The notes: a model not told the origin generated them from the sequence alone. A stretch of DNA of 64,000 bases from Acetobacterium sp. (GCF_030652775.1 NZ_JAUSPS010000010.1:19280-83279); one strand, 5' to 3'; counted from the stretch's first letter, positions 5,805 to 58,871 are shown. Translations and numbers: made by a program.

Positions 5805-5827
5805 TTATTCTTTTTATGAAGATTTTT

Positions 5828-8239
5828 TTATTCCATCGCCCGCAATCGTTCAACCAAGGAATTGTTTTGAAAAGAGCGTACTGAAACACCCGAAACCAGA
5901 ACCGGCACCAGCAATGTGACCAGAAGGTATGCTAGAAAATACCAAATCGGAAAGCGATAGTGCATATAGGTTGCGCCAAGTTCCCGCAGCAGATGGACCA
6001 GCAGGTATCCCATCCCGGTACCCACTATCAAGGTAATAACCAGATTCCCCAACGCCAGAATTAATCCCTCGCCCTGAACCATCTTCATCAATTGGCCACT
6101 CGTCATTCCGATTGATTGCAGCATTGAAAACTCCTGTCGACGCGAAATAATATTGGTCATCAGCGTGTTGATCAGATTGATCAGACTAAAGGCGATAATA
6201 AAAATTGACAGCCCCAGAATCACTCGATTGATCAGAGTGAACGATATCTTATCGGCAATCAGCTCTTCTCTAAGCGTATCCATTGCCAGGAGCGGATTTT
6301 CGTTGACCAGATTTTGTATCTGCGGCTCAATCTCAGCCCCTCTCAATTCTAAATCATCAACCGAGACCACCAGCGTTTCAGTGGTGTCAACCCCAGGAAA
6401 TAAGAGATCCAGCTTTTCCCGGGGAATGAGAAACCAGCCGGAATTATAAGTTACTTCGCTATAAGTATCGATGGCGCCGACCACCTTAAAATTTTTCTCT
6501 ACTTCCTCGGTGCCGTTGAAATAATGGAGGGTGACAGTGTCGCCCATTTCAAATTTCCAGCCAAATATTTCCTCCGCCACGCCATTAAGAACAATCAGCA
6601 GTTCGTCATTGGCAATCATTTCGTCATAATCAAAGTTGCCTTCTTCTAAGACATTTCTAACATTTTCCTGATCTTCCCGGGTAAATGGAGCCAGGCTGTC
6701 CTGATTGTTGACTTGATCCTTGTAATCGTAATTGACTTGGGCTTTATGATAACTTTGTACCGCTTTGACGCCGTCAATTTCTTTAATGCTTTCAATAAAT
6801 TCGGGATTCAGAGGATTGTTCAGCTGAATCCCGACATTGCCGTTCTCCATCGTTTGTGAGGCATTATAGTCATAGGCGATGATGTATTCACCCCATTGAT
6901 AAAAGCCCTGTCGGGAATAATCCTCCGCTGTCATGGAGCCGATAAATGTCGCTCCGGAGAGAAAAATAACCCCGCCAACGCCCAGGGAAATCATCGTCAA
7001 TAGTGTTTTTTTGCGATTCCTTTCGGCACTCATCATTGCCAGATGCAACGGCGTCATTTTCCGTTTGATGCTTTTAGATTCTTTTTTTCGACTCTGGCGG
7101 TACTGTGAAAAAAGCGATGCCTCAATCGACGTAACAGAGGCTGCCAGTTTTGCCGGTTTTCGGATAGAAATCAACACAGTGATCAGATCGGCCAGCAGGA
7201 TGATCAAACTGACAATCAGGGTGCTTTCCCAGTCCCAGCCGCCCGGCTTGATATAATAAGCGATCGGCCAGGCAATCAGAAAGCCTGCCATCGACCCGAT
7301 CAGGCAGAGCAAAACCCCTTCCCGTCTGACTAAGGCCCTAATCTGTTTTTTGGTTGCTCCCAGTGTTCGCAGTTGCCCAAACTGCCGGATTCTGCCGACC
7401 ACCGAAAGATAGAAGACACTGTAGATAACCAATACACTAACCAGCAGGATGCCGATACCAACGCCGACAGCTACCCCAACATTCATGGCCGACATCGTCA
7501 GCGAATTGGAAAAATAGTTGTTTTCATTGATGTTTTTTCGTTCGATTCCGGCCTCTGCACCAATGCTACGAATGGTATCCAGAAACTCCTGCTCAGACAT
7601 ACCCTCGGCCCCCTGAATTCGACAAAGTGCATGATAGGCGACATCCTTTAATTGTGGTCCATTCTCGGCATATTCCCGGGAAAAGATTAGCGGATAGACC
7701 TTGGTAACCTCCGCTTCTTCTAAAAATCCGCAAACGATAAAGGTTTCGGTTTCCCCATCCAGAAAGGTCAGAGAAACCGTCTCCCCGATCGTGGCCGGCA
7801 CGCCCAGTACCTTCATCAAGGATTTGTTAACCGCAATTTCATTGAATTGATGGGGATAGCTGCCTTCGATAACCGCAGTTGTTTTAATCGGCGCCGTTAT
7901 TTCCTCATAATAAACTGGCTGGATCATTTCTCCATTTAGTTCAAAGCCCTGACCCAATTTATCCAGAGTCATAAATTCAACCTGTTCTTCGCTCTCCAGC
8001 GCGGCAATCTGGGCCGCATTTACATTCATATAGGTGACATGCTGCATCATCGCTACCTGTCTTTTTAGTTCAATACCCTGGGCCGAGGTGAACAATGCCA
8101 TCACCCCCAGCAAACTGACGGACAGGGCAATGGTTATGAGGATAAAGAGATTTCTTGTTTTACTGGTTTTGATACTGCGCATGGCAAGATGACGAATAAT
8201 GGCCTGATTGTTGTTTATGATTTTTTTTGCCGTTTTCAT
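5828..8239 (-). CDS. ABC transporter permease, double FtsX/MacB-type
   Basis: 803 aa. Two FtsX units (RIRQFGQLRTLGATKKQI; RRQEFSMLQSIGMTSGQL) with large extracellular loops. Confidence 0.92.
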   Translation of the reverse strand: MKTAKKIINNNQAIIRHLAMRSIKTSKTRNLFILITIALSVSLLGVMALFTSAQGIELKRQVAMMQHVTYMNVNAAQIAALESEEQVEFMTLDKLGQGFELNGEMIQPVYYEEITAPIKTTAVIEGSYPHQFNEIAVNKSLMKVLGVPATIGETVSLTFLDGETETFIVCGFLEEAEVTKVYPLIFSREYAENGPQLKDVAYHALCRIQGAEGMSEQEFLDTIRSIGAEAGIERKNINENNYFSNSLTMSAMNVGVAVGVGIGILLVSVLVIYSVFYLSVVGRIRQFGQLRTLGATKKQIRALVRREGVLLCLIGSMAGFLIAWPIAYYIKPGGWDWESTLIVSLIILLADLITVLISIRKPAKLAASVTSIEASLFSQYRQSRKKESKSIKRKMTPLHLAMMSAERNRKKTLLTMISLGVGGVIFLSGATFIGSMTAEDYSRQGFYQWGEYIIAYDYNASQTMENGNVGIQLNNPLNPEFIESIKEIDGVKAVQSYHKAQVNYDYKDQVNNQDSLAPFTREDQENVRNVLEEGNFDYDEMIANDELLIVLNGVAEEIFGWKFEMGDTVTLHYFNGTEEVEKNFKVVGAIDTYSEVTYNSGWFLIPREKLDLLFPGVDTTETLVVSVDDLELRGAEIEPQIQNLVNENPLLAMDTLREELIADKISFTLINRVILGLSIFIIAFSLINLINTLMTNIISRRQEFSMLQSIGMTSGQLMKMVQGEGLILALGNLVITLIVGTGMGYLLVHLLRELGATYMHYRFPIWYFLAYLLVTLLVPVLVSGVSVRSFQNNSLVERLRAME

Positions 8240-21433: not shown

Positions 21434-22276
21434 ATGAATATTAATTTTTCAGTTGAAGAAACCGTAAAAAAGCGCTATAGCGTCAGAAATTATAAAGAAC
21501 AGGCGATTGAATCTGATCAGCGAAAGGCCATTGAAGCTTTTATCGATTCATTGGAAAACCCCTTTGGACCAAACGTTGCGTTTCATACCCTTGCTATCCA
21601 AACTGGGAAAAACGCCCAAAAACTTGGTACCTACGGGGTCATCAAAGGTGCCAGCCACTATATTGGCTCGACGATCACCCTGGAACCGATGGCCTTGGAA
21701 GCTTTAGGCTATGAATTTGAAGCCCTCGTCCTTTATTTGACCGATCTTGGTCTCGGCAGCTGTTGGCTGGGCGGCACTTTTGACCGTCAGAGCTTTTCAA
21801 ACGCAATGAAACTAGAAACCGGTGAAATTTTCCCGATCATAGCCCCATTTGGATATGCGGCCGACCATCAGCATTTTAAAGAAAAGGCCATGCGAATACT
21901 GGTCAAAGCTGATCATCGCAAAGAATGGCAGCAATTATTTTTTGCAGATGATTTTCAGTCCCCGCTTTCAGCAGCAACTGCCGGTGATCTTGCCTTTGCC
22001 TTGGAGATGGTACGATTAGGGCCATCCGCATCCAACAAGCAACCCTGGCGAATTTTATTAAAAGATGGCAGCTGTCATTTTTATGAGGATAAAGCACCGG
22101 GCTACAGCAAGGCCTTTTCCTACGATATTCAGCGGGTCGATATGGGCATTGCTGCCGCACACTTCGATTTTGCCGTGAAAGAAAGAAAAATTGACGGCCA
22201 TTTTGTCACTTCAGCCCAACCGGAAATCGACTTACCTAAGCACCTGGAATATGTCTTTTCGTGGATCAGGGATTAA
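21434..22276 (+). CDS. Nitroreductase family protein (duplicated fold)
   Basis: KRYSVRNY, GLGSCWLGG, GPSASNKQPW, DMGIAAAHF. Confidence 0.9.
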   Translation: MNINFSVEETVKKRYSVRNYKEQAIESDQRKAIEAFIDSLENPFGPNVAFHTLAIQTGKNAQKLGTYGVIKGASHYIGSTITLEPMALEALGYEFEALVLYLTDLGLGSCWLGGTFDRQSFSNAMKLETGEIFPIIAPFGYAADHQHFKEKAMRILVKADHRKEWQQLFFADDFQSPLSAATAGDLAFALEMVRLGPSASNKQPWRILLKDGSCHFYEDKAPGYSKAFSYDIQRVDMGIAAAHFDFAVKERKIDGHFVTSAQPEIDLPKHLEYVFSWIRD

Positions 22277-22341: not shown

Positions 22342-22376
22342 AAAAAAAGTCAGCTATCATTTAGCTGACTTTTTTT
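22342..22376. terminator. Bidirectional intrinsic terminator
   Basis: AAAAAAAGTCAGCTA-TCATT-TAGCTGACTTTTTTT between the convergent nitroreductase and acsB genes. Confidence 0.85.
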
Positions 22377-22450: not shown

Positions 22451-24586
22451 TTACATAATCGGATCCATCGCCAATGCGGGATGGTTTTTGGTTTCCAGGA
22501 ATTCCAATACTGCTTCAGAGTCAGTTGCAATGGTTTCGTCACAAACCATATCGGCAAAATTTTCAATGCCGGTCATTTCAAAGACCGCTTTGTTTAAACG
22601 TTCGGCGACATCGTTTTTCAATTCTTTAGGCATCCAGACGATTCGGGATAAACCACCTTCCGCTGACATGAATTTTTTAGAACCAATCAGGAAGCGGCCA
22701 TGACCCATAAAGCCTGGGGTCTGAACCCCGCCGCCGGTCATCGAAGCCAACTCACCAAAGGTCATTCCGACTGGTGAAGACTCGCTGAATTCACGATTGA
22801 CAATGATGACGCCATTGGCTTCCGGCATAATCCCGCAGATACATTCAAAACAACCACAGGAAGTCATCGGATCTTCCAGAATCGAATAGAGGGTTACTTT
22901 TTCGACGGCTCCCTGGGAAGCGGCATTTACCACCTCATTAACTGAAGCCCAGATCCCCAGCCGTTCATCAACAGCTTCACCTTTGACAATCGGCTGGTTG
23001 GGTCCCAGTGGATCCAGTTCTTTGGTGGCCTTGGCATCTAGCCAGGATACGGCTCCACAAAGACCTAGACGTTCTGGGGTGACAACGCAAACATGACTTG
23101 GCGCAAAGGACTGACATAATAAGCAGGTATAGAATTCATCAACGCTGGCATCGGTTAAGGCACTCATTCGAGCATCACGTTCAGCATAAATCGGTTTAAC
23201 CATTTCTTCGCCCAGTCGTTTGACATCTTCAGGCTTGGTGTAGATGGTAATTTCGCATTTATCAACAACCTTTTCAAAGTCTGATCGCATCTTGGCGTAG
23301 AGCACTTCGCCGATATGTTTTAACCGGAATCCCTTTTCAAAGGCTTCTTTGGTTAACCGAATCCAGGCAATGTTTCGTTGTCCGACATGCATAGCGCCAT
23401 CGATGTAGTTGGTGAAATAGTGGATCCGTCTTTCCAGCACGGTTTCAAAATCTTTCTGCATCGCTTTTCCGCCAACAGTCACCACAATCCCTAGTGGCAA
23501 ACGAACCACGTCGGCTCCGGCAAACATCGAGTCATCGATATCCGGTCCAATCAGGGTAATTTTGTGATCTTCCATTTCGGCCGGATCACCGCTGGTCACA
23601 AGTTCCCAACACTCGGTTTTGTTGCCGCCAAATTCAGCAAACATGGTGTCTTTACGAACCCGTTCACCTTCAAATGCCGATGCCACGGAAACAGGCACAT
23701 CAATTTTGGTAACTTTTATTTTAATTTCCCGAGCCTCTAAGGAGAACTCAACGGTTTTGGTGTGGTCAGCCTGGGTCATTAACGCACCGGGTACTTCCGG
23801 CACCGGGACATCAGCGATAACTGGGAAGCCAAGAGCAATGGCGCCAGCTCCCACGGAGACAATTACTTCGTTTAATTCGCCGAAGGTATTGACAAAGGCG
23901 GGTACCCGATCTTTGGTATAGGTCAGGAATTCTGCCAGTTTGCCCGGTTCGATTCCGCCAAAAATCAGGGCGGCCCGAATCGCAACGGAGACAACATGGA
24001 TCACTGAGGTCACTTCATGACCTAAGGGAATGACCCGATATTCCAGTCCCATTTTCACACCGGCTGCTAACGCTTGCTCGATGATATTACCAACCATAAA
24101 GGTCAACAACCCTTTTTCCTGATAATCTTTAACGATGGCTGCCAATGTGGCGGGATCTGAGGATTCACCCAACAGTACCGCAATTCCGGGAATATCTCCG
24201 GTTACCAGTGGCACGCCCAACGATCGAATAATCGGATCAGCGACAAAACCGATGCCGGCATCGTTAGCGTAAGGGTCGCCATCCAGATAGCGGATCGCTT
24301 CAATAATTTCAGCCCCGACTGCGGTAGCCAGCCCGGCGTTTAAGGCTTCTCCCAAATCTTCTTTGTTGGTAATCAGACTTTTAAGAATCCCCACTGCTGC
24401 CGGCAAGTCGCCCAGAGTTTTAATTTTAACCCCGGTTGCCGCATAAATGATCGGTAAAAAATAGGCCGTATCCGGGTATCCAACCGCATGATCGGCACCA
24501 TACTTTTCAATAGCGTCATTAACAGCGCCTTCTGTTAAACCTGCAACCGCATTCGAACCCGCATAAATTAAATCTGTCAAACTCAT
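22451..24586 (-). CDS. acsB: Acetyl-CoA synthase (CODH/ACS beta subunit, bacterial three-domain form)
   Basis: 711 aa. A-cluster ligands TCLLCQSFAPSHVCVVTPERLGLCGAVSW and PMTSCGCFE intact; N-terminal domain YPDTAYFLP. Confidence 0.97.
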   Translation of the reverse strand: MSLTDLIYAGSNAVAGLTEGAVNDAIEKYGADHAVGYPDTAYFLPIIYAATGVKIKTLGDLPAAVGILKSLITNKEDLGEALNAGLATAVGAEIIEAIRYLDGDPYANDAGIGFVADPIIRSLGVPLVTGDIPGIAVLLGESSDPATLAAIVKDYQEKGLLTFMVGNIIEQALAAGVKMGLEYRVIPLGHEVTSVIHVVSVAIRAALIFGGIEPGKLAEFLTYTKDRVPAFVNTFGELNEVIVSVGAGAIALGFPVIADVPVPEVPGALMTQADHTKTVEFSLEAREIKIKVTKIDVPVSVASAFEGERVRKDTMFAEFGGNKTECWELVTSGDPAEMEDHKITLIGPDIDDSMFAGADVVRLPLGIVVTVGGKAMQKDFETVLERRIHYFTNYIDGAMHVGQRNIAWIRLTKEAFEKGFRLKHIGEVLYAKMRSDFEKVVDKCEITIYTKPEDVKRLGEEMVKPIYAERDARMSALTDASVDEFYTCLLCQSFAPSHVCVVTPERLGLCGAVSWLDAKATKELDPLGPNQPIVKGEAVDERLGIWASVNEVVNAASQGAVEKVTLYSILEDPMTSCGCFECICGIMPEANGVIIVNREFSESSPVGMTFGELASMTGGGVQTPGFMGHGRFLIGSKKFMSAEGGLSRIVWMPKELKNDVAERLNKAVFEMTGIENFADMVCDETIATDSEAVLEFLETKNHPALAMDPIM

Positions 24587-24657
24587 AATTTTTCACTCTT
24601 CCTTTTCAAAGAAATTTTTTCTTGTAATTCATTCATGTAATTTATTCATTATATAAT

Positions 24658-24673
24658 AGCAAGTTTTATGCCA
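24658..24673 (-). promoter_or_regulatory. Sigma54 -24/-12 promoter for acsB
   Basis: Minus strand TGGCATAAAACTTGCT versus consensus TGGCAC-N5-TTGCW, about 70 nt upstream of the acsB ATG. Confidence 0.85.
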
Positions 24674-24680
24674 AAAAATA

Positions 24681-24712
24681 AAATCCGCCTAATTTAGCAT
24701 CCAGGCGGATTT
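24681..24712 (-). terminator. Intrinsic terminator after the sigma54 activator gene
   Basis: AAATCCGCCT...AGGCGGATTT followed by TATTTTTT on the minus strand. Confidence 0.7.
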
Positions 24713-24747
24713 CAGTCGATACTTGGTATTTTGCAGTGTCCATTTTT

Positions 24748-24790
24748 TTGACACTGTCAATGACATTCTTTACAGTTTTTGACAGTGTCA
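24748..24790. promoter_or_regulatory. Paired palindromic upstream activating sequences (putative EBP sites)
   Basis: TTGACACTGTCAA (24748-24760) and TTGACAGTGTCA (24779-24790), about 75-115 bp upstream of the sigma54 promoter. Confidence 0.65.
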
Positions 24791-24820
24791 GACACCATCC
24801 GGTCAACAACCTGCAAGTGT

Positions 24821-26755
24821 TTATGTTATGTTATATTTCTTAATTTTATTGTAGAGTGTTTGCCGCGTGATGCCCAGTTTTTCCGCAGCAGCAGTCTTAT
24901 TGTCGTGGCAGCTTTTTAGAACCTTGACGATCAGATCCTTTTCATTTTCTTTAATTTCACTTTTAGCGATTACTGAATCAAAACCATTTAAGGTTTCTGC
25001 GGTACATAGTTCTTTAACAATCAGATCATTCGTAATAACCCGATCATCAACTAAAAATGTCAGTCTTTTCAGTAAATTTTCTAACTCTCTAATATTACCT
25101 GGCCAATTATAATTCATTAATTCCCGCAGTCCTGCTTCATCAATTCTTTTTAATGCGGTTCCCGTTTCTTTACTGATATGTTCCAGTATTTTATCGACAA
25201 GACCGGGAATTCCCTGACGTCTTTCTCTTAACGGCGGCAAAATAATATTGATGACATTAAGCCGGTAATAGAGATCTTTTCTGAATAAACCCGCCCTGAT
25301 CATCTCTTCCAGATTTTGACTTGTCGCTGCAATGACTCTTGTATCAACTTTCCGGGTTGTGACAGAACCCATTTTTTCGAACTTTTTTTCCTGCAGAAAG
25401 CGGAGTAATTTCGATTGGATTTCGATTGGAATCTCTGCGATTTCATCTAAGAAAACAGTGCCGCCCTGAGCCATTTCCAATCTGCCTACTTTGCCATTCT
25501 TGTTCGCACCAGTAAAGGCTCCGGGTTCATAGCCAAAAAGCTCGGTTTCAAAAAAATTCCTGGGGATCGTGGTACAGTCAATATAGACGAACGGTTTTTG
25601 ACTTCTGGGACTCTCTTGATGAACAATTTCTGCAAACATTGTTTTCCCCGTTCCACTTTCCCCTCGCATTAGAATTGAGGCATCTGTTTTTGATACCTTC
25701 TTGATGTAATTCACCAGTTCAATCATTTCATGGCTGTCGACAATGACGTTTGTGTCGCAAAGATTAACCGCCTGCTGTTCTCTGGCTTTGTTTTTGCCGT
25801 CAATCCGTTCTTCCAGGTCTGAGATTTTGTCAAGCAGCAGTTTAATAAAATCCGACTCCACCGGAATTACCTGTCTTAGCACTGCCTTTGATTCTAAAAT
25901 AGGGCTCTCAAAGATGATATGTTCCTTACCCGAAATCATCTGCTGCCATATCGCCGGTTCCCCGGTTGCCAAAACCTCGGTATATTTTGATTCCCATGCT
26001 AACGAGATGATGCTGGTATTCTTTTCAAATGCCGAGGCTAAGAATTCCTGGTACTTTTTATTGATTCGCACCACCATTCCCCTATTATCAATGACCGCCA
26101 GATAATTGGGGATGCTATCGATGATATTCTGATTGAAATTATCTGCCTCCAAAGCATTTTCCAGAGCATCATTGAGTTTCTTATTATCTTGAGTCGAACG
26201 CTGACTTTGGGATTGGATCTGATTTTTGCTTTTGGCTAACTTTAATGAGTTGATGGTCAGGTAGAGCATATTAATATCGTTTTTGCCACCGTCACCGTCT
26301 TCATTGAAGCTCTTTTTATTCCCAACTGCTTTGGTAACTTCGAATTCGCAATACGCATCTCCCAAGGCATTGCACTTCACTTCCAGCGCATCCATATCCT
26401 GTTTGCTGATGGTACTGACGGCACCGGCTAAAATCCCCGCTTCAAAATAGCATACCGGTTTTCCAACGTTCTCCATATCACTGCAGGTAAAACAGTCATC
26501 CAGACGAAAGACGACTTTCTCGTCCGACATGTTGGTTATGACGATTTGCCCAATTCCCAATTCCATGATTTTTTCTGACAAGCTATTATAGTCTGTTACA
26601 TTTAGGCTGCGCCCGACATTTTTTGCGGTATTATAATATATTTCTTCCTCAACAGCTTTTGAATTCTGACTGGCATTTGCCAAATTCAGGACATTTTTCA
26701 GGTTTTTTTCGACATTATTGTAATTTTTGTAGTTCACAATACCATTATTAAACAT
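24821..26755 (-). CDS. Sigma54-dependent enhancer-binding protein, V4R - PAS-like - AAA+ - Fis HTH
   Basis: V4R (DCFTC...CYFEAGILAG...EVKCNALGDAYCEF), GESGTGKT, GAFTGA, FLDEI, FRKDLYYRLNV, WPGNIREL, AAEKLGITRQTLYNKIKKY. Confidence 0.93.
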   Translation of the reverse strand: MFNNGIVNYKNYNNVEKNLKNVLNLANASQNSKAVEEEIYYNTAKNVGRSLNVTDYNSLSEKIMELGIGQIVITNMSDEKVVFRLDDCFTCSDMENVGKPVCYFEAGILAGAVSTISKQDMDALEVKCNALGDAYCEFEVTKAVGNKKSFNEDGDGGKNDINMLYLTINSLKLAKSKNQIQSQSQRSTQDNKKLNDALENALEADNFNQNIIDSIPNYLAVIDNRGMVVRINKKYQEFLASAFEKNTSIISLAWESKYTEVLATGEPAIWQQMISGKEHIIFESPILESKAVLRQVIPVESDFIKLLLDKISDLEERIDGKNKAREQQAVNLCDTNVIVDSHEMIELVNYIKKVSKTDASILMRGESGTGKTMFAEIVHQESPRSQKPFVYIDCTTIPRNFFETELFGYEPGAFTGANKNGKVGRLEMAQGGTVFLDEIAEIPIEIQSKLLRFLQEKKFEKMGSVTTRKVDTRVIAATSQNLEEMIRAGLFRKDLYYRLNVINIILPPLRERRQGIPGLVDKILEHISKETGTALKRIDEAGLRELMNYNWPGNIRELENLLKRLTFLVDDRVITNDLIVKELCTAETLNGFDSVIAKSEIKENEKDLIVKVLKSCHDNKTAAAEKLGITRQTLYNKIKKYNIT

Positions 26756-29864: not shown

Positions 29865-29933
29865 TTAGTCGATATGAATATCACGAATGATCGTCATATC
29901 GACTAAATGACGCGGGGTCGTTTTATTTGTCAC
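29865..29933. repeat. 13-bp perfect inverted repeat abutting a REP-like element
   Basis: TTAGTCGATATGA (29865-29877) / TCATATCGACTAA (29894-29906), then ATGACGCGGGGTCGTTTTATTTGTCAC (29907-29933), which overlaps the amt-GGDEF stop. Confidence 0.65.
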
Positions 29934-31819
29934 ATTGGTTGCTTCACAATCATGTTTCTGCCCTTTTCTTTTGCGCAATAAAGCAGTGAATCCGCCCGGT
30001 TAATCATTTTATTTAAATCCTCTCCTTCGTATTCGACAACGCCCCCGCTAACCGTAATGGTATAATCCTTGTTAAAATCCCAGATCATCTTTTCAATCTT
30101 TTCTCTGATCATATTTGCAAAGATATACGCTGTTGCCAAATCAGTTTTAGGCATAATGACAAGAAATTCTTCGCCCCCATACCGGCCAAAATAGTCTGTT
30201 TTTCTGATGGTATTGCTGACATTCTTGACGATATCAACCAATACCTGATCACCAGCTAAATGTCCGAATTGATCATTGACTTTTTTGAAAAAATCAATAT
30301 CGAACAATAATATTGACAGTTTTTTCTCATAGTTGATGGCAATGCTGATTTCTTTTTCCAAGGCATCGGTTACATTTTTTCTGTTTAAAATTTGTGTCAA
30401 ACCATCCGTCACCGCCATATGATGCAGCGACTGCAAAGCCTCTTCGGCCAGCTCTTCTTTTTCTTTTAAATCATTGACCATACTATTGAAATAATCTGTC
30501 AATTCACCAATTTCAGTTCCGAATTCGACTTCAATTTTTTCTGCATTTTTAAAGTTTTTATGCTCAATGATATTCCGAACCGAATTCGAAAGTTCAAAAA
30601 TACTGGTACTTGCGCCATGCTCGGCAATATTGAGTCCAATTTCTTCATGACTTGGCGATACCCGCATGGGAAAGAATTTATTAATAATCGTCATTAAAAT
30701 AAATGATACGCCAAAGCTCCAAACAAACGCCGCAGTCGCGCCCAGTATTTGAATCATAATTTGATTGGATCTGGTCATCCCAAATTCTAGTAGAAAATTC
30801 TCCTGAATAAAAATTCCGGTAGCAATTGTTCCCCACACTCCGGCAAATCCGTGTACCGGTATTGCACCAACCACATCATCCAGTTTGAGCTTTTCCAATA
30901 GCAGGGTTCCAAAAAAAACAATTAAACCAGCTACAATCCCGATAACCAACGCCCCAACTGCGCTCACATAATAACAACCCGCGGTTATTCCCACCAATCC
31001 GCCAAGAATACCATTGATGATACTTTCCGGTTCGGGAAGTTGATTTTTACTGAATTTCCAACTGACAAACAGACCGGTAAGCCCGCCAAAAGAAGCAGAT
31101 ATCAAGGTATTGGCAATGATGTCGGCAATATTCGTAGTCGCCGCCAGCGTACTGCCGGCATTAAACCCAAACCAGGCGAAAAACAGAATGAAAACACCAA
31201 AGTATGCAAAAACGAGATTGTGTCCTCTTATTTTGTTTGCTTTGCCATCTTTTTCAAACCTGCCCAGTCTTGGGCCAATAATGATCACACCAGAAAGTCC
31301 AACCCAGGCGCCAATCGAGTGAACAACCGTTGATCCGGCAAAATCAAGAAATCCGAGCTGCTGAAGCCAGCCGGCGTTATCCGCATAGAAATAACCACCC
31401 CAGGCCCAATGACCAAAAATTGGATAGATAAATGATGACGTAATAAATGACATTAATAAATAGGTGCTGAATTTCGCTCTTTCGGCAACCGCCCCAGAAT
31501 CGATGGTTGCCGCTGTTCCGGCAAACACGACTTGAAAAAGAAAAAAAGCAGCTTTCCAATCATCTTGTTCAAAATTCACAAAAAAATCACTGATTCCTAC
31601 AATACCATGAAATGATTCGCCAAACATCAGCCCAAAACCAATAAACCAAAAAGCCGCAACGGATAAAATAAAATCCGACATATTCTTAATCGCAACATTG
31701 ATGGAGTTCTTTGCGCGTGTAAGTCCCGTTTCCAAAGCCATAAAACCTGGCTGCATCAGAAATACAATCATCGCCGATATGACAACCCATAAATAATCTG
31801 AAATATCCTTCATCTGCAT
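29930..31819 (-). CDS. amt: Ammonium transporter fused to a HAMP-like linker and GGDEF diguanylate cyclase
   Basis: Amt motifs QPGFMALETG, DFAGSTVVH, WFGFNAGS, DDVVGAIPVH. Then DGLTQILNR, DIDFFKKVNDQFGH, RKTD I-site and GGEEF. Confidence 0.93.
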   Translation of the reverse strand: MQMKDISDYLWVVISAMIVFLMQPGFMALETGLTRAKNSINVAIKNMSDFILSVAAFWFIGFGLMFGESFHGIVGISDFFVNFEQDDWKAAFFLFQVVFAGTAATIDSGAVAERAKFSTYLLMSFITSSFIYPIFGHWAWGGYFYADNAGWLQQLGFLDFAGSTVVHSIGAWVGLSGVIIIGPRLGRFEKDGKANKIRGHNLVFAYFGVFILFFAWFGFNAGSTLAATTNIADIIANTLISASFGGLTGLFVSWKFSKNQLPEPESIINGILGGLVGITAGCYYVSAVGALVIGIVAGLIVFFGTLLLEKLKLDDVVGAIPVHGFAGVWGTIATGIFIQENFLLEFGMTRSNQIMIQILGATAAFVWSFGVSFILMTIINKFFPMRVSPSHEEIGLNIAEHGASTSIFELSNSVRNIIEHKNFKNAEKIEVEFGTEIGELTDYFNSMVNDLKEKEELAEEALQSLHHMAVTDGLTQILNRKNVTDALEKEISIAINYEKKLSILLFDIDFFKKVNDQFGHLAGDQVLVDIVKNVSNTIRKTDYFGRYGGEEFLVIMPKTDLATAYIFANMIREKIEKMIWDFNKDYTITVSGGVVEYEGEDLNKMINRADSLLYCAKEKGRNMIVKQPM

Positions 31820-42362: not shown

Positions 42363-42425
42363 TGATGTGACAAAGAGATGTTTTTGGCAGTAAACCATAT
42401 CAGTAACTACCCGATAAACTTTATA

Positions 42426-42554
42426 TTGACAAAAAATAATTTCTTAGTTATGATATCAAATAAAAGCAGACAATACAAAACTAAACAATTAAAAACAGCA
42501 AGAGTGGTACAAGGAGGTACGCGCAGAAAGTATGCGTATACCTTCATTTTTTTT
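42426..42554 (+). promoter_or_regulatory. SigA promoter plus leader hairpin/U-tract upstream of the uptake operon
   Basis: TTGACA(42426)-17-TATGAT(42449). Hairpin at 42511-42544 followed by T8, about 30 nt before the permease ATG. Confidence 0.6.
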
Positions 42555-42584
42555 ATCATTTCATTTTTTTATCAAAGGAGTTTT

Positions 42585-43643
42585 ATGGAAATCGGCAAGC
42601 GTGAAAAAAGTCAAAACCGTAAAAAAAAGCGGGTGCGAAGAAATCAGATAATAATAGCTGGTATGTTGATCCTATTGATCGTTTTGTTATTAGCCTCCTT
42701 TACTTTGGGAAGATATAACATTGATATAAAAGATTTGATCGTTTATATGGGAAAAAAACTTGGGATTAATCTGGAGCTTGACCAGATTAAAGAACATCTT
42801 ATTTCCAGTGTCAGATTTCCCAGAATAATTGCCGTCATTTTGACGGGTCTGGCACTATCCGTTTCAGGGGCATCTTATCAGGGTATCTTTAAAAACCCCA
42901 TGGTTTCGCCGGATATTTTAGGCGCTTCAGCAGGCGCTGGCTTTGGCGCATCGCTGGGGATTTTATTGTCATTGCCAACCATCATGATTCAATTATTAGC
43001 ATTTGGCTTTGGAATTACCTCGGTGGCGTTAAGCTGTTTGATTGCCGGAATTGTCGGACGGCGTGAAAATGTAACCCTCGTTCTGGTGCTGGCTGGAATG
43101 GTGGTATCATCATTATTCAGTGCATTTATCTCCATTATTAAATACGTCGCCGATCCATATGCTAAATTGCCGGAGATCACATTTTGGCTGATGGGAAGTA
43201 TTTCCGACGCTAAAAACAGTGATTTAATTTTTATAATTGTGCCGGTTGTCATTTGCCTGACGATTATATTTCTGGTTAGATGGGAAATCAACGTTCTCAG
43301 TTTTGGTGATGAAGAGGCCCGCGCTTTAGGGGTTAATGCCGGGCAATTAAGGCTGGTCATTATTATTTGTGCAACCATGCTGACGGCAACCGTAGTAAGT
43401 GTTTCCGGTCAAATCGGTTGGGTTGGACTGATTATTCCACATCTGGCAAGGATGATCGTCGGTCCTGACTACCGGTACTTAATTCCGGCAACAGCAATCC
43501 TGGGAGGGATCTTTCTGTTACTGGTTGACAATATTGCCAGAACGGTTATGCCGGTTGAAATTCCGCTAGGGATACTAACCGCTATCATTGGGGCACCGTT
43601 TTTTGTGTTTTTGATTTTAAGAGGAAGGAAAGGATGGATTTAA
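42585..43643 (+). CDS. FecCD/BtuC-family ABC permease
   Basis: RFPRIIA, QGIFKNPMVSPDILG, GDEEARALG, GWVGLIIPH, DNIART, EIPLG. Start at ATG 42585. Confidence 0.94.
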   Translation: MEIGKREKSQNRKKKRVRRNQIIIAGMLILLIVLLLASFTLGRYNIDIKDLIVYMGKKLGINLELDQIKEHLISSVRFPRIIAVILTGLALSVSGASYQGIFKNPMVSPDILGASAGAGFGASLGILLSLPTIMIQLLAFGFGITSVALSCLIAGIVGRRENVTLVLVLAGMVVSSLFSAFISIIKYVADPYAKLPEITFWLMGSISDAKNSDLIFIIVPVVICLTIIFLVRWEINVLSFGDEEARALGVNAGQLRLVIIICATMLTATVVSVSGQIGWVGLIIPHLARMIVGPDYRYLIPATAILGGIFLLLVDNIARTVMPVEIPLGILTAIIGAPFFVFLILRGRKGWI

Positions 43644-44413
43644 TGCTGGAGCTTAATAACATTTCCTGTGGCTATAACAATATGCCAATCTATCAAGGGA
43701 TTAATTTTAAGGTTCATCCGGGGAGTATTGTCTGTATCATGGGCAGAAACGGAATCGGGAAAACAACTTTGCTAAAAACGATTTTAGGAAGTCTTAATAC
43801 CCTAAACGGTTCAATTATTCTTAATGGCAAAGATATTCTTACCTACAGCAATAAAAAAAGAGCGCAGCAGATTGGATATGTCCCCCAGTCCCATGTTCCG
43901 CCCTTTCCATATTCTGTTAGAGACGTTGTTGTGATGGGGAAAACACCACATTTATCGATATTTTCGGTACCGGGCGATTCTGACTACTCACAGGCCGATG
44001 AAATATTAGAAAAAATTGGCATTAGCTATTTAAAGGAAAAAATATACACCCAAATTAGTGGCGGTGAAAGGCAGCTAGTAATTATTGCGAGAGCTTTGAT
44101 TCAAAATCCTAACATTTTAATTATGGATGAGCCCACTGCAAATCTGGATTATGGCAATCAGATTAAAATTATTAAAACCATTAAAGCCTTGGCAAAAGAA
44201 AAAATATCCGTAATAATGACAACGCATCATCCTGAACAGGCATTTGAGTGTGCCGACTTAGTTGTCGCAATGACTGAAGACAAGGTGATTTCAACCGGAA
44301 CGCCGGTAGAAATATTAACAGCGGAATTGATTGAAGAAATCTATGGCGTAAGCGTTACTGTTCAAACGGTAAATGTCGAGGGAAAGGAAAAAATGATATG
44401 TTTGCCAAAATAA
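43634..44413 (+). CDS. ABC ATP-binding protein (FecE/BtuD-like)
   Basis: GRNGIGKT, ISGGERQL, MDEPTANLD, TTHH. Confidence 0.94.
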   Translation: MDLMLELNNISCGYNNMPIYQGINFKVHPGSIVCIMGRNGIGKTTLLKTILGSLNTLNGSIILNGKDILTYSNKKRAQQIGYVPQSHVPPFPYSVRDVVVMGKTPHLSIFSVPGDSDYSQADEILEKIGISYLKEKIYTQISGGERQLVIIARALIQNPNILIMDEPTANLDYGNQIKIIKTIKALAKEKISVIMTTHHPEQAFECADLVVAMTEDKVISTGTPVEILTAELIEEIYGVSVTVQTVNVEGKEKMICLPK

Positions 44414-45507
44414 AAAGACCGCTAATAACAATAACACTCATATTTATTGTCATTACCTCAGGTGGATGCTCCAATCCTTCGGATTCAAAAAATGAAGCGC
44501 ACAACACGATTATCGATATGGCAGGAAGAACGGTGGAAGTGCCATTAACAATTGATCGTGTTTATTCGGCCGGGCAACCAGGGGTTGTTGCACTCTATAC
44601 CTTATGTCCGGATAAGCTTTTGGGATGGTGTATTGAACCGTCTGATGCGGAGGCTGAATTTATTAATGCAAAGTATCTGAATCATCCGGTACTGGGGCTT
44701 TGTCAGGGAACAAATGCCAATGCAAATACCGAAGAGATTGTTGCCCGAAATCCGGATATTATTATTTTGATGACGGATACGAGTACCGAATACGCGAAAA
44801 CTTCGGCCGACGAAATGCAGGAAACTTTTCAAATTCCGGTTGTCGTGGTTGGTGATGAATTGACGACCATGGATGAGAGTTACCGATTCCTGGGCAAATT
44901 ATTAGGAGTAGCAGCGCGAGCTGAAGAGCTGGCCTCCTATTGCGCCAAGGTAATTGATGAAGCTAAAGACATTTCAAAAACAATTCCAGACAAAGAGAAA
45001 GTCAAGGTCTACTACGCTCAAGGCTCAACCGGACTTCAGACCGCGCCACAGGGATCAGCACACTCACAGGTGATTGAACTGGTTGGCGGAATTAATGTAT
45101 GTCGTCTGGATGCGGTTGATAGCGGTCGTCTGACCATTGATATGGAACAATTGTTTAAATGGAATCCTGATATTATAATCGCCTCATATAGTGATGACCA
45201 TGGCGGAACCAACCTCGGGAACACCGATGTTTTTGACATCATTACCAATGCAAATCCGGAATGGCCTCTTTTAGAAGCAGTAAAGAACGGTGAAATATTC
45301 AAAACCCCCTTCTTACCATATAATTGGCTGGACATGCCACCATCGGCTAACAGAATTGTTGGGGTAGCCTGGCTGGCAGAACTTTTATATCCTGACTACT
45401 ATCATTTTGATATTGTGCCGGCAACAAAAGATTTTTATCAGCTGTTTTATCGGATTGAGTTATCAGATGAACAGATAAACAAATTACTAAATGAGGCAGT
45501 AAAATAA
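44398..45507 (+). CDS. Class III substrate-binding lipoprotein (BtuF/FepB-like)
   Basis: Lipobox TSGGC; DMAGRTV, EEIVARNPDII, EQLFKWNPDII, AVKNGEI. Confidence 0.9.
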   Translation: MFAKIKRPLITITLIFIVITSGGCSNPSDSKNEAHNTIIDMAGRTVEVPLTIDRVYSAGQPGVVALYTLCPDKLLGWCIEPSDAEAEFINAKYLNHPVLGLCQGTNANANTEEIVARNPDIIILMTDTSTEYAKTSADEMQETFQIPVVVVGDELTTMDESYRFLGKLLGVAARAEELASYCAKVIDEAKDISKTIPDKEKVKVYYAQGSTGLQTAPQGSAHSQVIELVGGINVCRLDAVDSGRLTIDMEQLFKWNPDIIIASYSDDHGGTNLGNTDVFDIITNANPEWPLLEAVKNGEIFKTPFLPYNWLDMPPSANRIVGVAWLAELLYPDYYHFDIVPATKDFYQLFYRIELSDEQINKLLNEAVK

Positions 45508-45656
45508 AAATAAAAGGAGGCCGCAATGAAAAAACGCTTAAAGCAGACAGAATGGCGCTGACGCTATGTCGATACAAACGATTGGATAGCAGCGAATTAG
45601 AAAGAACACGAAAAAAAACTGATTAAATTGAGTTTAACAAAGAAGAGGAGCAGTTA

Positions 45657-46439
45657 ATGAAAAAAGCAACGAAAAAAATGCCGGAAAATGCGAAAAAAAA
45701 TGCAATGCCGGGTTTGATTATGATGGTGTTAATCATGATATCGATAATGTCATCAATGAGCGCACCCGTTTTAGCAACTGACCAAGTGGATACAACCGTG
45801 TATGACTCCGCTTCAACAACCGAAACCTTATCATGGAAAGCCTTTAATGTTTTATTGGGTTACAATGATATGGGAACGACAATGACCGGATCTCCGGCAA
45901 CGGGTATCTATGAATTTAGAGTCGGCGGAACCGCTGATGGCGAATTAAAATATGCCTGGACATTTGACGGAAGTGCTTTCACAACACCCTTTACCAGTGA
46001 AACAAAAGGACCAATAAATCTTACGGTCCAAACGGTGAGCGAACCTGAAAAAGGTCTTGGGATTACGTTTGACCTCTATACCTCGCATAGCGAGGGTAAG
46101 GATAATAGCCTGAACGGCGCTGCAAATTTAAAACTAAAAGTGGCTGAATTTTTTGCTGATGGAACAAAACTTGTGATTACTGATTCGAATGCGTACAGTA
46201 AAGAAGTAACTGTAGTGGATGGTTATATTAGTTTTGAGGTCAACCAGGGCGGTACCTACGAAGCTAAAGAAAATCCCGTTGCCGTCCCAGAAAAAACTGC
46301 TCCAGCAGATAATGAGATCGTTACAGCCAAGTCCACCAATCCGGTGAATATTGGATTGGTGATTCTGCTAATCGTCGTGGTTTTGGCAATTGGTGGAATT
46401 GTTGTTTTCCTGAAAAGAAAAGGCAAGCATGATAACTAA
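45657..46439 (+). CDS. Secreted, C-terminally membrane-anchored surface protein
   Basis: Signal peptide, beta-rich domain, C-terminal TM (IGLVILLIVVVLAIGGIVVFL) plus KRKGK stop-transfer. Confidence 0.75.
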   Translation: MKKATKKMPENAKKNAMPGLIMMVLIMISIMSSMSAPVLATDQVDTTVYDSASTTETLSWKAFNVLLGYNDMGTTMTGSPATGIYEFRVGGTADGELKYAWTFDGSAFTTPFTSETKGPINLTVQTVSEPEKGLGITFDLYTSHSEGKDNSLNGAANLKLKVAEFFADGTKLVITDSNAYSKEVTVVDGYISFEVNQGGTYEAKENPVAVPEKTAPADNEIVTAKSTNPVNIGLVILLIVVVLAIGGIVVFLKRKGKHDN

Positions 46440-46446
46440 TTAATGC

Positions 46447-47862
46447 GTGAAAGGGTCGATAATTATGGTATGCGGTGAAAAGAAAGCAAAAACGGTTTCC
46501 TGTCTTTTTAGAGTATTGTTTACGATAATTATCATACAGCTTGTCAGTTTTACGACTACAAACCTGGTTTTTGCTGAAACAATTGGAGATGATACCATTC
46601 ATGATTCAGGAACGGGAACATGGGAAAACCCTTATGTCGATACCGTTGATGCGACTTCAAAGGTATCATGGAAACACCTGGAAAAAATCGGTGAAGAGCA
46701 AATTCATGAAGTCTATCAAATTGTTGAAAATGGCGTGATGCAGTATAGTTGGTATTTTTCTCCTGAAATTTGTAAAAATCCTTCCATTAGTGGTCCCTAT
46801 TTCCTGGGGATTAACAAATATCTCGTCAGTCAGTCTGATCATTTACCCGGTGGAAGCAGCGATGAGTCGCTTTATTTTTCTTTTGCCCTAAAACGGGATT
46901 TTCCCGGAGCAGTCAAAATTAAACTAAATGTTTCAAACAATTTCTCTGATGGCACTGTTTTGGATTTGAATTACTATGGCGGATATGCGAAAACGGCTGT
47001 TCATGGCGACAGTCCACTGATCTTGCCGGGCGAAATCAATACCTTTTCGGGGGTCGAAGCGGTTGCTTCAGGGCTCCCCGTAATTGATGGCTATGTGGAA
47101 TTCGATGTCCGCCATGGTGGAAATTATTATTTAATACCGGAAAACACAAACAGTGCCAATATCAATTCAAGTGAAGTTGTACTCGGTAAAATCGGCGAAC
47201 TTTTTAGCGGTAAAATTGCTGAAACGATTGCTGATTATTTTGGTAAAACCATTGAAGATACCGTTACCGCCGGGGATTTAAACAGTATTAAAAAATTGTA
47301 TCTAGCAGATATGCAATTAGACAGCTTAGATGAACTTGGCAAATATAACTTGAGCGGGTTGGAGCAATTAACGGCTTCAGGAAATAACCTAAACAAGGTT
47401 CCGCTTTTGAAAGCACCTCAAATAACTTACCTGGATTTGTCCGGCAATAAAATTGATGATATTGCCGGGTTAGGACAGATGCCCACCTTGAAAAACATTT
47501 TATTATCCGATAATCGCATGACAAACATCGGGGATTTAAGTATTTTTGCAAAATTAACGACATTAGATTTAAGCAATAACAAAATTACTTCCTGGGGTGC
47601 GGAAATAAAAAGTGGTACCCTCCGGTACCTAAAGCTTAGTGGGAATCAAATCGAAACGGAAATTGACACATCCGGGCTTACCGCATTAGAAGAACTGGAA
47701 TATGATCGCGATGCTTCGTTAGTTGCGGCGTCTCAATCAGTATCTGAAAAGAAGCAAACGGATGGAGAATTTATGAAAAACGGATCCGTAGTTTTTATTA
47801 TTTTGATAATTATTATCGCAATAGTGACGATTAAAGTATATTTTAAAAGGAGTAGTTTATGA
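46447..47862 (+). CDS. Surface protein with a beta-rich domain, internalin-like leucine-rich repeats and a C-terminal TM anchor
   Basis: LRRs such as LEQLTASGNNL, ITYLDLSGNKI, LKNILLSDNRM, LTTLDLSNNKI, LRYLKLSGNQI. C-terminal TM plus KRSS. Confidence 0.8.
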   Translation: MKGSIIMVCGEKKAKTVSCLFRVLFTIIIIQLVSFTTTNLVFAETIGDDTIHDSGTGTWENPYVDTVDATSKVSWKHLEKIGEEQIHEVYQIVENGVMQYSWYFSPEICKNPSISGPYFLGINKYLVSQSDHLPGGSSDESLYFSFALKRDFPGAVKIKLNVSNNFSDGTVLDLNYYGGYAKTAVHGDSPLILPGEINTFSGVEAVASGLPVIDGYVEFDVRHGGNYYLIPENTNSANINSSEVVLGKIGELFSGKIAETIADYFGKTIEDTVTAGDLNSIKKLYLADMQLDSLDELGKYNLSGLEQLTASGNNLNKVPLLKAPQITYLDLSGNKIDDIAGLGQMPTLKNILLSDNRMTNIGDLSIFAKLTTLDLSNNKITSWGAEIKSGTLRYLKLSGNQIETEIDTSGLTALEELEYDRDASLVAASQSVSEKKQTDGEFMKNGSVVFIILIIIIAIVTIKVYFKRSSL

Positions 47863-48827
47863 AATATTTTGAAAACAATGTATTGGCTCTGATGCCTTGT
47901 GCGGTTAAAGTGCCCATGGAAGCAACGATTGCCAGTTACATCAAAAATAAAAATCTTTCCCTAAAATATGAGATATTATCCAATGCCGTCGTCCAGGCTG
48001 ATTTTTTTGAAGAGCTTAAAACAATTGAGGATATTGATAAACTTCCGGATATCATGATTGCTCCGGGATTCAGCCGCTTTTTCTTTCCGGCATTTGTTGA
48101 ACGATTTATAAAAAAGGGCGCCTTCCAATCATCGCTTGACTTTGAGGTGTCAGAGGCTTATCAGGAATCAGGCGTTATTGACCCCAATGCTTACTACGAT
48201 ATCATCGCTGTCAACCCACTTATTTTTTTAGTTGATCAAACGAATTATCCCGATCTTGAGCCGCCAAAAAAATGGGCTGATCTTCTATCTTCGCAATATC
48301 AGCAGAAAATTGCCTTTAGAGGCCATACCGATGAGGATTTGTGTGAGGGCATCTTATTTGAAATCTATCATACCCATGGTATTGAAGGAATAGAACGGTT
48401 GGCTCGAAATATAAAATCAAGGCTGCATCCTTCACAGATGGTAGCCCTTGCCGGAAGCAAAAAAGAAGAAGCGCCCTTTATCAGCGTAATTCCTTTATCC
48501 TTTGCGAATCTTGTGAAGGAAAGCGACACGGTTCGGGTGATCTGGCCGGAAGACGGTGCTGTAATGAATCCGGTTGTCATGTTGACAAAAAAGGATTGCA
48601 GCCAGGATGCAAAGGACGTTTCAAGATACTTTATTAGTGAAGCGGTTGGCGCTTTATTTAGCGAGGTCGGTTTTTGCTCGCTCCGGCCGGGGCTTGAGGA
48701 AAGAATGCCCCACTTTGGAAAATACAAATGGATCGGTTGGGATTTTCTCCTTCAGACGGATGTAAAAAAACTTCATGATGAACTGAATCAGGTGGTTAAC
48801 ACACACTCACTGGAAAGGGTGAAATAG
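47859..48827 (+). CDS. Substrate-binding-protein-fold protein without a signal peptide
   Basis: PKKWADLL, VIWPEDGAVMNP, YFISEAVGALF fit the AfuA/spermidine-type SBP fold. The N-terminus has no hydrophobic leader. Confidence 0.7.
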   Translation: MKYFENNVLALMPCAVKVPMEATIASYIKNKNLSLKYEILSNAVVQADFFEELKTIEDIDKLPDIMIAPGFSRFFFPAFVERFIKKGAFQSSLDFEVSEAYQESGVIDPNAYYDIIAVNPLIFLVDQTNYPDLEPPKKWADLLSSQYQQKIAFRGHTDEDLCEGILFEIYHTHGIEGIERLARNIKSRLHPSQMVALAGSKKEEAPFISVIPLSFANLVKESDTVRVIWPEDGAVMNPVVMLTKKDCSQDAKDVSRYFISEAVGALFSEVGFCSLRPGLEERMPHFGKYKWIGWDFLLQTDVKKLHDELNQVVNTHSLERVK

Positions 48828-48828
48828 A

Positions 48829-57974: not shown

Positions 57975-58008
57975 TTGCGGTACCTCCATAAATCTTGTTA
58001 TTCAAAAT

Positions 58009-58793: not shown

Positions 58794-58842
58794 TGCTGCT
58801 TTCACCTCCTGCTGTTTTTGCCAGTATATCACATTTTTGACG

Positions 58843-58871
58843 GCATAACAAACGAAACGTCCCTTTGTCAT
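58843..58871 (-). repeat. REP-like element upstream of RAYT (inverted partner)
   Basis: Minus strand ATGACAAAGGGACGTTTCGTTTGTTATGC with self-complementary ends. Confidence 0.8.

Follow-up and report, generated by a model that had tools for sequence, protein, structure and literature searches.

An orphan acetyl-CoA synthase gene of Acetobacterium coupled to a sigma-54 activator with relatives at carbon monoxide dehydrogenase operons

In solved CODH/ACS complexes (between carbon monoxide dehydrogenase, CODH, and acetyl-CoA synthase, ACS), the N-terminal domain of ACS docks on CODH and carries the CO tunnel, and the full-length, monomeric ACS of Carboxydothermus hydrogenoformans (PDB 1RU3) is said, after work by Svetlitchnyi and colleagues in 2004, to be able to work without bound CODH on free CO. 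As for regulation, most CO-using Firmicutes, to our knowledge, lack both CooA and RcoM, and little is known of CODH control there, and NorR sets the precedent of an enhancer-binding protein that senses a gas at a non-haem metal site. Extra acsB copies are already known from Acetobacterium, where a tandem copy next to acsB1 has been noted (bioRxiv 10.1101/2020.01.23.904417, Ross et al.; PMC6239172, Shin et al.). Here we describe a 64-kb stretch of DNA from an uncultured Acetobacterium (the window, by which we mean the whole stretch analysed) with a 644-aa sigma-54 activator gene on its minus strand followed by an acsB gene for a 711-aa protein, the orphan acsB. Our preferred reading, held with moderate confidence, is that this self-contained two-gene module provides a conditionally induced ACS isoenzyme under an activator of CODH type, the signal being most likely CO or CO-linked. 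Both gene products are as such ordinary members of the AcsB and sigma-54 activator families; what appears to be new, judged by our literature search, is the orphan module, a family of activators with a V4R domain and a CxTC pair that shows CODH linkage and a shared enhancer motif, and the domain-mosaic evolution of acsB.

An initial annotation of the window had claimed a full-length acsB with all six A-cluster cysteines, and profile searches bear this out. AcsB matches NCBIfam NF040764 (bacterial AcsB; cut-off 800 bits) at 1061 bits over residues 9-711, has the Pfam matches CODH_A_N, CdhC and ACS_CODH_B_C and, once aligned with solved ACS structures, shows a complete ligand set (C488, C491, C500 and C510 for the [4Fe-4S] cluster and bridge, C577-G578-C579 for nickel), which we take to be equivalent, at an offset of 18 over the range aligned to 1OAO/1MJG, to Cys506/509/518/528/595/597 of Moorella thermoacetica. 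By the same kind of motif offset, Phe494 presumably corresponds to M. thermoacetica Phe512. The best solved relative is the subunit of the Clostridium autoethanogenum CODH/ACS (6YTT; 1031 bits, full length), and the score against C. hydrogenoformans ACS (1RU3) is 729 bits. Together these features show that the module encodes a complete, full-length ACS with predicted catalytic activity on CO, methylated corrinoid iron-sulfur protein (methyl-CoFeSP) and CoA. Compared with its orthologues, the gene shows ratios of nonsynonymous to synonymous change (dN/dS) of 0.02-0.03 at dS 0.7-1.7, and the selection estimates span 0.014-0.039; by these rates, the orphan acsB is under strong purifying selection and selectively maintained.

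None of acsA, acsC, acsD, acsE, acsF and cooC, which the initial annotation had noted as absent from the vicinity, turned up when open reading frames (ORFs) of at least 120 aa were scanned with Pfam over all 64 kb. Its view of a terminator-flanked, apparently monocistronic acsB agrees with hairpins on both sides, one behind the activator gene (-18.2 kcal/mol, z -3.5) and a bidirectional one behind acsB (-18.3 and -18.6 kcal/mol on the two strands, z -4.7 and -7.9; Table 1). Along the direction of transcription, the 234-bp spacer from activator to acsB holds palindromes, a hairpin with T-run, a sigma-54 site and a 71-nt leader. On its sequence the module is therefore laid out, in order, as activator, own enhancer, terminator, -24/-12 promoter and monocistronic full-length acsB. 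The promoter TGGCATAAAACTTGCT, earlier described as near-consensus, is the only exact TGGCAY-N5-TTGCW match in the window; since matches with one mismatch stay at chance level (9 found, 6.1 expected; no enrichment), its significance rests on position and conservation. Palindromes occur three times in the window as against 0.24 expected by chance: two are the ones previously seen upstream of acsB, conserved in orthologues, and the third lies within a distant gene. A riboswitch or other RNA in the acsB leader was ruled out, as there is no Rfam or tRNA match anywhere in the window.

Scanning one genome per species gave 78 acsB loci (L numbers below), among which the activator and acsB pair recurs in seven further Acetobacterium genomes, where flanks differ and the pair is the sole unit common to all eight loci. 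An alignment of the eight spacers shows conservation of TTGGCAY-AAAAM-TTGC (8/8), of the palindromes and of the ribosome-binding block amid diverged intervening sequence and flanks; the hairpin stem is kept in L002 and L003 despite base changes on both arms. Within the Acetobacterium-group loci (L001-L031), six carry an exact sigma-54 consensus 5' of the orphan acsB, three further exact sites are at unrelated positions (L014, L025, L026), and no sigma-54 site was found before the tandem acsB copies or before the His-rich ORF that adjoins them. A block resembling the acsB leader element AATTTCTTTGAAAAGGAAGAGTG does occur 5' of the tandem copies in L011 and L019. Dedicated control of the orphan acsB by sigma-54 and the activator, as first proposed from the window, is thus strongly supported by phylogenetic footprinting. 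As judged from relatives, the gene looks like the second ACS first proposed: acsB1 was recovered in 6/7 genomes with the module, and four of these six also hold a third acsB copy in tandem.

Two further observations concern the surroundings of the pair. In A. malicum (L014 4279-7270), a second exact sigma-54 site, CTGGCACAATAATTGCT, is located 24 nt before a gene for a 983-aa Cache/HAMP methyl-accepting chemotaxis protein directly 5' of the activator gene, and no TGTCA-type palindromes were seen at this site. In A. carbinolicum (L002 12412-13537) and A. wieringae (L006 5523-6620), a CobW/HypB/UreG-type GTPase gene comes next after the orphan acsB, along with a conserved ORF of 160 aa from no known family; both are absent from the window and could be metal-insertion helpers.

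What the activator may respond to is best approached through its family. As a sensor-only query of a word-indexed protein database gave just 5 close matches, the family was defined with the full-length query, which retrieved orthologues at 80-100% identity and, beyond these, V4R homologues of ~640 aa at 35-70% identity. Their hosts are Acetobacterium sp., Clostridium sp. DJ247, C. saccharoperbutylacetonicum, three Alkaliphilus species, Alkalicella, Thermohalobacter, Frackibacter, Selenihalanaerobacter and uncultured organisms. Every non-acsB homologue looked up (12/12) lies directly 5' of a CODH operon on the same strand. Eleven of the 12 operons comprise a cooF-like ferredoxin and CooS, to which a small ORF and CooC are each usually added, and that of the most distant homologue reads FNOR-CooS-CooF. 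With 712-740 bits against TIGR01702 (CooS; cut-off 478 bits), the Prismane-family neighbours are ruled out as hybrid-cluster proteins. The CODH-linked loci share the cassette, too: TTGACAnTGTCAA or, in other genera, TTTACAnTGTAAA palindromes just 3' of the activator stop codon, often a hairpin next, and TGGCAY-N5-(T/A)TGC 66-144 nt 5' of cooF or FNOR (13 paralogous loci). In Acetobacterium, cooF-linked and acsB-linked spacers can even be aligned across enhancer and promoter.

A neighbour-joining tree groups the acsB-linked activators in one clade (bootstrap 100), nested within the CODH-linked ones and sister to the cooF-cooS-linked paralogues of Acetobacterium (bootstrap 100). From this nesting we conclude that, on tree topology, the acsB linkage is derived: a duplicate of the Acetobacterium cooF-cooS-linked regulator and its cassette became joined to acsB. 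The family is small: among 1.84 billion representatives, a sensor-domain profile picked out no more than four 50%-identity clusters at E<=1e-30. While the window activator has the family traits (~640 aa, four regions, invariant C88, C91, C102, E125, C128, C136), its target is acsB rather than cooS, unlike the 12/12 other members examined. A published sigma-54 regulon survey of Clostridiales gives the V4R activators Clopa_1482 and Cspa_c21140 without targets and lists no V4R activator for A. woodii DSM 1030 or strain KB-1; sigL itself, which does not lie in the window, is reported in A. woodii and Acetobacterium sp. KB-1 (PMC6615313, supplementary Table S1). Our search of the literature on acsB2, sigma-54 with cooS, V4R with CODH and Ni-CODH context found no regulator-target pair of this kind.

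As to its domains, the activator shows by Pfam a V4R match (82-141) inside a DUF2507-like region (36-127), a sigma-54 interaction domain (338-504; PF00158, E 4e-66) with Walker A GESGTGKT and GAFTGA at 412-417, an AAA lid and HTH_8 (603-641). The earlier description as a Cys-rich V4R, PAS-like and GAFTGA protein is therefore confirmed for V4R and GAFTGA by Pfam and alignment; for the PAS-like part it holds by way of homologues, as the window protein has no Pfam PAS match of its own and its residues ~200-310 align with the PAS_4/PAS-matching region of P0047 and P0049. XylR_N has no Pfam match (V4R and DUF2507 only), NF041906 (MobR) is matched at 271 bits, far from its cut-off of 999, over the AAA+/HTH part (336-641) only, and neither Pfam nor NCBIfam detects the haem-binding CRP-type or PAS-LytTR domains of CooA and RcoM architecture. 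Across 18 aligned sequences, down to 34% identity, C88, T90, C91, C102, E105, E125, C128 and C136 are invariant, which gives the sensor five invariant cysteines, and no histidine is. An AlphaFold2 model of residues 1-154 (mean pLDDT confidence 74, core above 85) matches the V4R protein MJ1460, YslB, the sensor domains of PoxR/MopR/DmpR and Bet3, with H-NOX at rank 49. By profile search, C102/E125/C128/C136 align with the C-x22-E-x2-C-x7-C motif of MopR (5KBE/7VQF), which binds zinc there, and with an H-NOX protein. The C88-x-T-C91 pair is found neither in MJ1460 nor in generic V4R proteins, a pattern that makes it the prime candidate for a ligand, metal or redox site specific to the family.

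The initial annotation had left the cue as a small ligand, gas or redox state; the 12/12 CODH-linked homologues would narrow it towards CO or a CO-linked state, CO being the only compound that CooS and ACS have in common as substrate or product. In the mechanism we envisage, the sensor would hold the activator inactive until a signal arrives, the same one that would induce monofunctional CODH in the activator's relatives, and most likely CO itself or a direct consequence of it, acting at a Cys-ligated V4R site (C88/C91 beside the Cys/Glu/Cys/Cys metal site). The active protein would then assemble on the enhancer, loop over the terminator and remodel the sigma-54 holoenzyme for acsB transcription. 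Induced AcsB would make acetyl-CoA from CO, a methyl group and CoA, using methyl-CoFeSP (AcsCD/AcsE) encoded elsewhere, by the Wood-Ljungdahl cluster, either as free ACS that scavenges exogenous CO or docked on a CODH outside its usual partnership; one of the two is suggested by its different N-terminal domain (see below). A bolder version, which we regard as possible and put forward tentatively, sees V4R activators as a third, non-haem class of CO sensors after CooA and RcoM, based on a Cys-ligated metal site, with the duplicate in Acetobacterium driving a CO-scavenging ACS that, by virtue of its distinct N-terminal domain, would act apart from the housekeeping CODH or with a new partner.

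Several points weigh against our preferred reading. The regulated genes are all that points to the ligand, and nickel, Fe-S clusters and low-potential ferredoxin chemistry are common to CODH and ACS as well, so that a metal or redox signal would fit no less well. That no sensor histidine is invariant argues against a haem-based CO sensor, three of the five sensor cysteines are likely to make up a structural zinc site like that of MopR, and the V4R activators known so far (XylR, DmpR, MopR and PoxR) respond to aromatic compounds instead of gases. An in-frame deletion has removed the PAS-like region from the activator of A. carbinolicum (519 aa) and from abundant metagenomic variants (517 aa), and the module would seem dispensable for acetogenesis, given that no V4R activator is listed for A. 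woodii DSM 1030 or KB-1. Finally, expression, DNA binding and biochemistry of the module are predictions. The PAS-less form deserves mention in its own right: in L002 (8221-9780, A. carbinolicum) and P0001-P0003, the deletion covers ~181-306 (linker and PAS-like region) so that V4R almost abuts AAA+, and P0002 represents 41 member sequences.

The main rival, which we think rather unlikely, keeps the module and changes the signal: the V4R/Cys sensor would report redox state (through a CxTC thiol/disulfide or an Fe-S cluster) or the availability of nickel or another metal, with the cell raising CODH or ACS capacity when ferredoxin is over-reduced or nickel at hand. Five invariant cysteines including a CxxC-type pair, the Ni-Fe-S nature of both CODH and ACS, the GTPase gene that A. 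carbinolicum and A. wieringae have 3' of the orphan acsB and the precedent of an Fe-S-based redox-sensing sigma-54 activator, OrpR (PMC8359166), all speak for it. However, one-component activators beside catabolic operons usually sense the substrate, and CO alone is shared by CooS and ACS as substrate or product. The sequence itself fits each of these signals alike; CO or a CO-linked state is to our minds the better candidate.

The case for an isoenzyme draws on the acsB paralogues. Acetobacterium acsB loci fall into three kinds, acsB1, a 711-aa tandem copy directly 3' of acsB1 after a His-rich ORF, and the activator and acsB pair. In the only acsB1 cluster annotated (A. carbinolicum, L011), the order is acsD-acsC-acsE-acsA-cooC-acsB1; its acsB1 product, the copy examined, has 724 aa and is ~73% identical to window AcsB. 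This likeness is unevenly spread, with 52% identity in the N-terminal domain (1-296), 88% in the middle and 91-92% in the C-terminal domain. Moreover, 75 of the 77 fixed differences between type 2 AcsB and acsB1 are in the N-domain, and acsB1 has a 10-residue insert after position 106. Between orphan and tandem copy the pattern is reversed (dN 0.005-0.02 in the N-domain, ~0.10 in middle and C domains). Domain trees are discordant accordingly: the N-domains form two old lineages, about equidistant from C. autoethanogenum AcsB (60% and 57%), whereas the middle and C domains of all Acetobacterium paralogues group together. Because the N-domain is what docks on CODH and carries the tunnel, these comparisons lead us to conclude that it is the docking and gas-delivery part, not the catalytic part, that is kept different between paralogues by selection. 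The suggestion that the orphan AcsB is swapped into CODH/ACS is qualified by its N-domain lineage, which differs from that of acsB1; on sequence grounds, the protein could pair with AcsA, with CooS or with nothing.

Recent gene conversion was ruled out as the source of the middle and C-domain similarity to acsB1: synonymous sites are near saturation (dS ~1.6 or more), so any exchange between orphan acsB and acsB1 must be old. The middle and C-domain trees join acsB1 of strain ES2 and of A. fimetarium each to the tandem neighbour from its own genome, a pattern that indicates concerted evolution.

Further acsB copies and their neighbours add to this picture. The tandem copies of two metagenome-assembled genomes (MAGs; L019 and L004, compared with L007) fall in the orphan clade, with 98% and 93% amino acid identity to the window protein at dS ~0.8; the orphan type may have arisen from a tandem copy like these, or copies may have been exchanged, and MAG chimerism may also account for it. 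Between acsB1 and the tandem acsB (L011 9196-9825; L019 about 5810-6457) lies the His-rich ORF of 209 aa, its first ~130 residues His-dominated (HxH, HxHxH runs), with a stretch rich in Cys and a conserved helical tail behind them. Neither Pfam nor NCBIfam gives it a match, and a nickel storage or chaperone role in ACS maturation is plausible. Paralogy of acsB reaches well beyond Acetobacterium, as other Clostridia (Anaerofustis, Sporobacter, Parasporobacterium, Lachnospiraceae and Oscillospiraceae MAGs) have a second, more divergent acsB (44-62% identity) at most 10 kb from the main one (L045, L059, L060, L062, L071, L073, L074, L076).

Three remaining explanations concern the enzyme. Induced AcsB might run in the cleavage direction, from acetyl-CoA to methyl and CO, as proposed for acsA-less Dehalococcoides, with the regulator coupling it to CO removal. 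ACS is indeed reversible and the gene stands alone without acsA, yet the genomes with the module have a complete Wood-Ljungdahl cluster and belong to acetogens, induction by a reaction product would be unusual and methyl-consuming genes are not linked to the module; we find this option very unlikely. More doubtful still is a redundant duplicate without distinct role, expressed constitutively or not at all, its promoter and enhancer likeness being inherited. Though A. woodii DSM 1030 and KB-1 manage without the activator and the catalytic domains are almost identical to those of acsB1, purifying selection is strong at saturated synonymous divergence (dN/dS about 0.02, dS 0.7-1.7), promoter and upstream activating sequence (UAS) are kept in eight loci despite diverging flanks and two N-domain lineages persist while the other domains are homogenised. 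Equally hard to credit is that the window acsB is the sole ACS of its organism, with partner genes elsewhere in the genome: the exact protein is on metagenome contigs only, but acsB1 accompanies the module in 6/7 related genomes (within the Wood-Ljungdahl cluster in the one annotated) and a published comparison (bioRxiv 10.1101/2020.01.23.904417) describes Cluster III as conserved throughout the Acetobacterium genomes. That the organism is A. woodii DSM 1030 was ruled out by the same restriction of the exact AcsB to metagenome contigs and by the lack of a listed V4R activator in that strain. A link of AcsB-like nickel enzymes and a 'vinyl reductase' sensor to isoprene reduction in A. wieringae was ruled out, the putative isoprene reductase being a GltD/NfnB-type flavoprotein and not AcsB-like (PMC10134865).

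Table 1. Parts of the module in the window (nucleotide positions; aa, residues) and activator and acsB pairs in related genomes with their other acsB loci.
Feature	Position or locus	Strand	Details
acsB paralogue, type 2 orphan copy	22451..24586	-	711 aa; NCBIfam/Pfam matches
acsB N-terminal domain	aa 1-296 = 23699-24586	-	
acsB middle domain	aa 297-466 = 23189-23698	-	
acsB C-terminal A-cluster domain	aa 467-711 = 22454-23188	-	
Bidirectional intrinsic terminator of acsB and convergent nitroreductase gene	about 22342..22376	both	A7-GTCAGCT-loop-AGCTGAC-T7
acsB 5' leader incl. ribosome-binding region AATTTCTTTGAAAAGGAAGAGTG	24587..24657	-	block invariant in 8 orthologous loci
Sigma-54 (-24/-12) promoter TGGCATAAAACTTGCT	24658..24673	-	consensus match; -12 end 71 nt 5' of acsB start codon
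Activator-gene terminator hairpin, between enhancer and promoter	24679..24714	-	14-bp stem, then T-run
Enhancer (UAS) region	24726..24800	-	two palindromes and further GTGTC/GACAC half-sites
Palindrome TTGACACTGTCAA (type TTGACAnTGTCAA)	24748-24760	-	motif search
Palindrome TTGACAGTGTCAG (type TTGACAnTGTCAA)	24779-24791	-	motif search
Sigma-54 enhancer-binding protein	24821..26755	-	644 aa; Pfam and 18-sequence alignment
Activator V4R-type sensor	aa ~30-145 = 26321-26668	-	
Activator PAS-like region	aa ~200-310 = 25826-26158	-	
Activator AAA+ domain	aa 338-504 = 25244-25744	-	GAFTGA at 412-417
Activator HTH_8	aa 603-641 = 24833-24949	-	
Pair, A. carbinolicum	L002		other acsB: L011 (acsB1 and tandem copy)
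Pair, A. malicum	L014		other acsB: L010 (acsB1 and tandem copy)
Pair, A. wieringae	L006		other acsB: L023 (acsB1)
Pair, MAG JACQZP	L003		other acsB: L009 (acsB1 and tandem copy)
Pair, MAG OZ2231	L005		other acsB: L022 (acsB1)
Pair, MAG CAZEBY	L007		other acsB: L019 (acsB1 and tandem copy)
Pair, MAG HGW-4	L001		other acsB: L008 (3.6-kb contig, second type-2 copy only, no acsB1 recovered)

The rest of the window, by the same Pfam scan, holds regulators, efflux pumps, a metal-uptake cluster, chemoreceptors and hydrolases. Of two paralogous nitroreductase genes of TM1586 type, the first (21434-22276, +) converges on acsB and shares its terminator, and the second (57126-57989, -) is adjoined by an IS200-like transposase gene (58038-58871). 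An ammonium transporter (Amt, residues 10-404) is fused to a GGDEF diguanylate cyclase (469-622) at 29930-31819 (-), and its 88% identical orthologue in L005 is on the opposite side of the module. The metal/siderophore-type uptake cluster (42378-50509, +), ~18 kb from the module and with no evident link to it, is made up of FecCD permease, ABC ATPase, periplasmic binding protein, LRR protein, SBP_bac_6, a CobW/HypB/UreG-like GTPase and a second ATPase.

The cassette of activator, enhancer and sigma-54 promoter, present before cooF-cooS in several genera and before an acsB paralogue in Acetobacterium, makes a concrete, testable candidate for a CODH regulator and possibly a CO- or redox-inducible promoter for engineering gas-fermenting acetogens. 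The activator's relatives at CODH operons suggest an undescribed way of sensing and responding to CO in these bacteria, and the reading would gain in novelty should the sensor prove to bind CO. The AcsB paralogues, for their part, are a natural experiment in which catalytic domains were homogenised and two N-terminal docking and tunnel domains kept apart, suggesting that ACS isoenzymes diverge in the N-domain, be it in partner choice, CO channelling or CO tolerance.

Compared with the AcsB of bacterial CODH/ACS (M. thermoacetica, 1OAO/1MJG; C. autoethanogenum, 6YTT), the window protein has the same three domains, all A-cluster ligands and Phe494, and is about 60% (N-domain) and 69% (middle and C domains) identical to 6YTT; its gene, in contrast, is encoded alone behind a sigma-54 promoter, as a monocistronic unit away from acsA/C/D/E and cooC. 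With the tandem AcsB of A. bakii, A. malicum, A. tundrae and others (bioRxiv 10.1101/2020.01.23.904417; PMC6239172), it shares the type 2 N-domain lineage, the length of 711 aa and the leader with ribosome-binding block, but the tandem copy follows the His-rich ORF inside the Wood-Ljungdahl cluster, without sigma-54 site or activator, and in its middle and C domains the orphan is nearer to acsB1 than it is to the tandem copy. Monomeric ACS from C. hydrogenoformans is a functional precedent for a CO-linked, stand-alone ACS and differs in that its gene belongs to the acs cluster and that growth condition, rather than a separately regulated paralogue, sets monomer versus complex.

Among the regulators, XylR, DmpR, MopR and PoxR have the V4R fold, the C-x22-E-x2-C-x7-C motif, AAA+ with GAFTGA and HTH_8 in common with the window activator, which lacks XylR_N and has, in addition, a PAS-like insert and an invariant CxTC pair; its family targets CODH or ACS genes, not aromatic catabolism. 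CooA, a CODH-associated factor (PMC6344411), and RcoM, the haem CO sensors of coo operons, as well as the NO-responsive NorR, resemble it in the gas-responsive activation that we propose. Their sensor folds (CRP/FNR, PAS-LytTR and GAF) are nonetheless unrelated to that of the window activator, whose sensor conserves no histidine and whose CO sensing is a proposal only.

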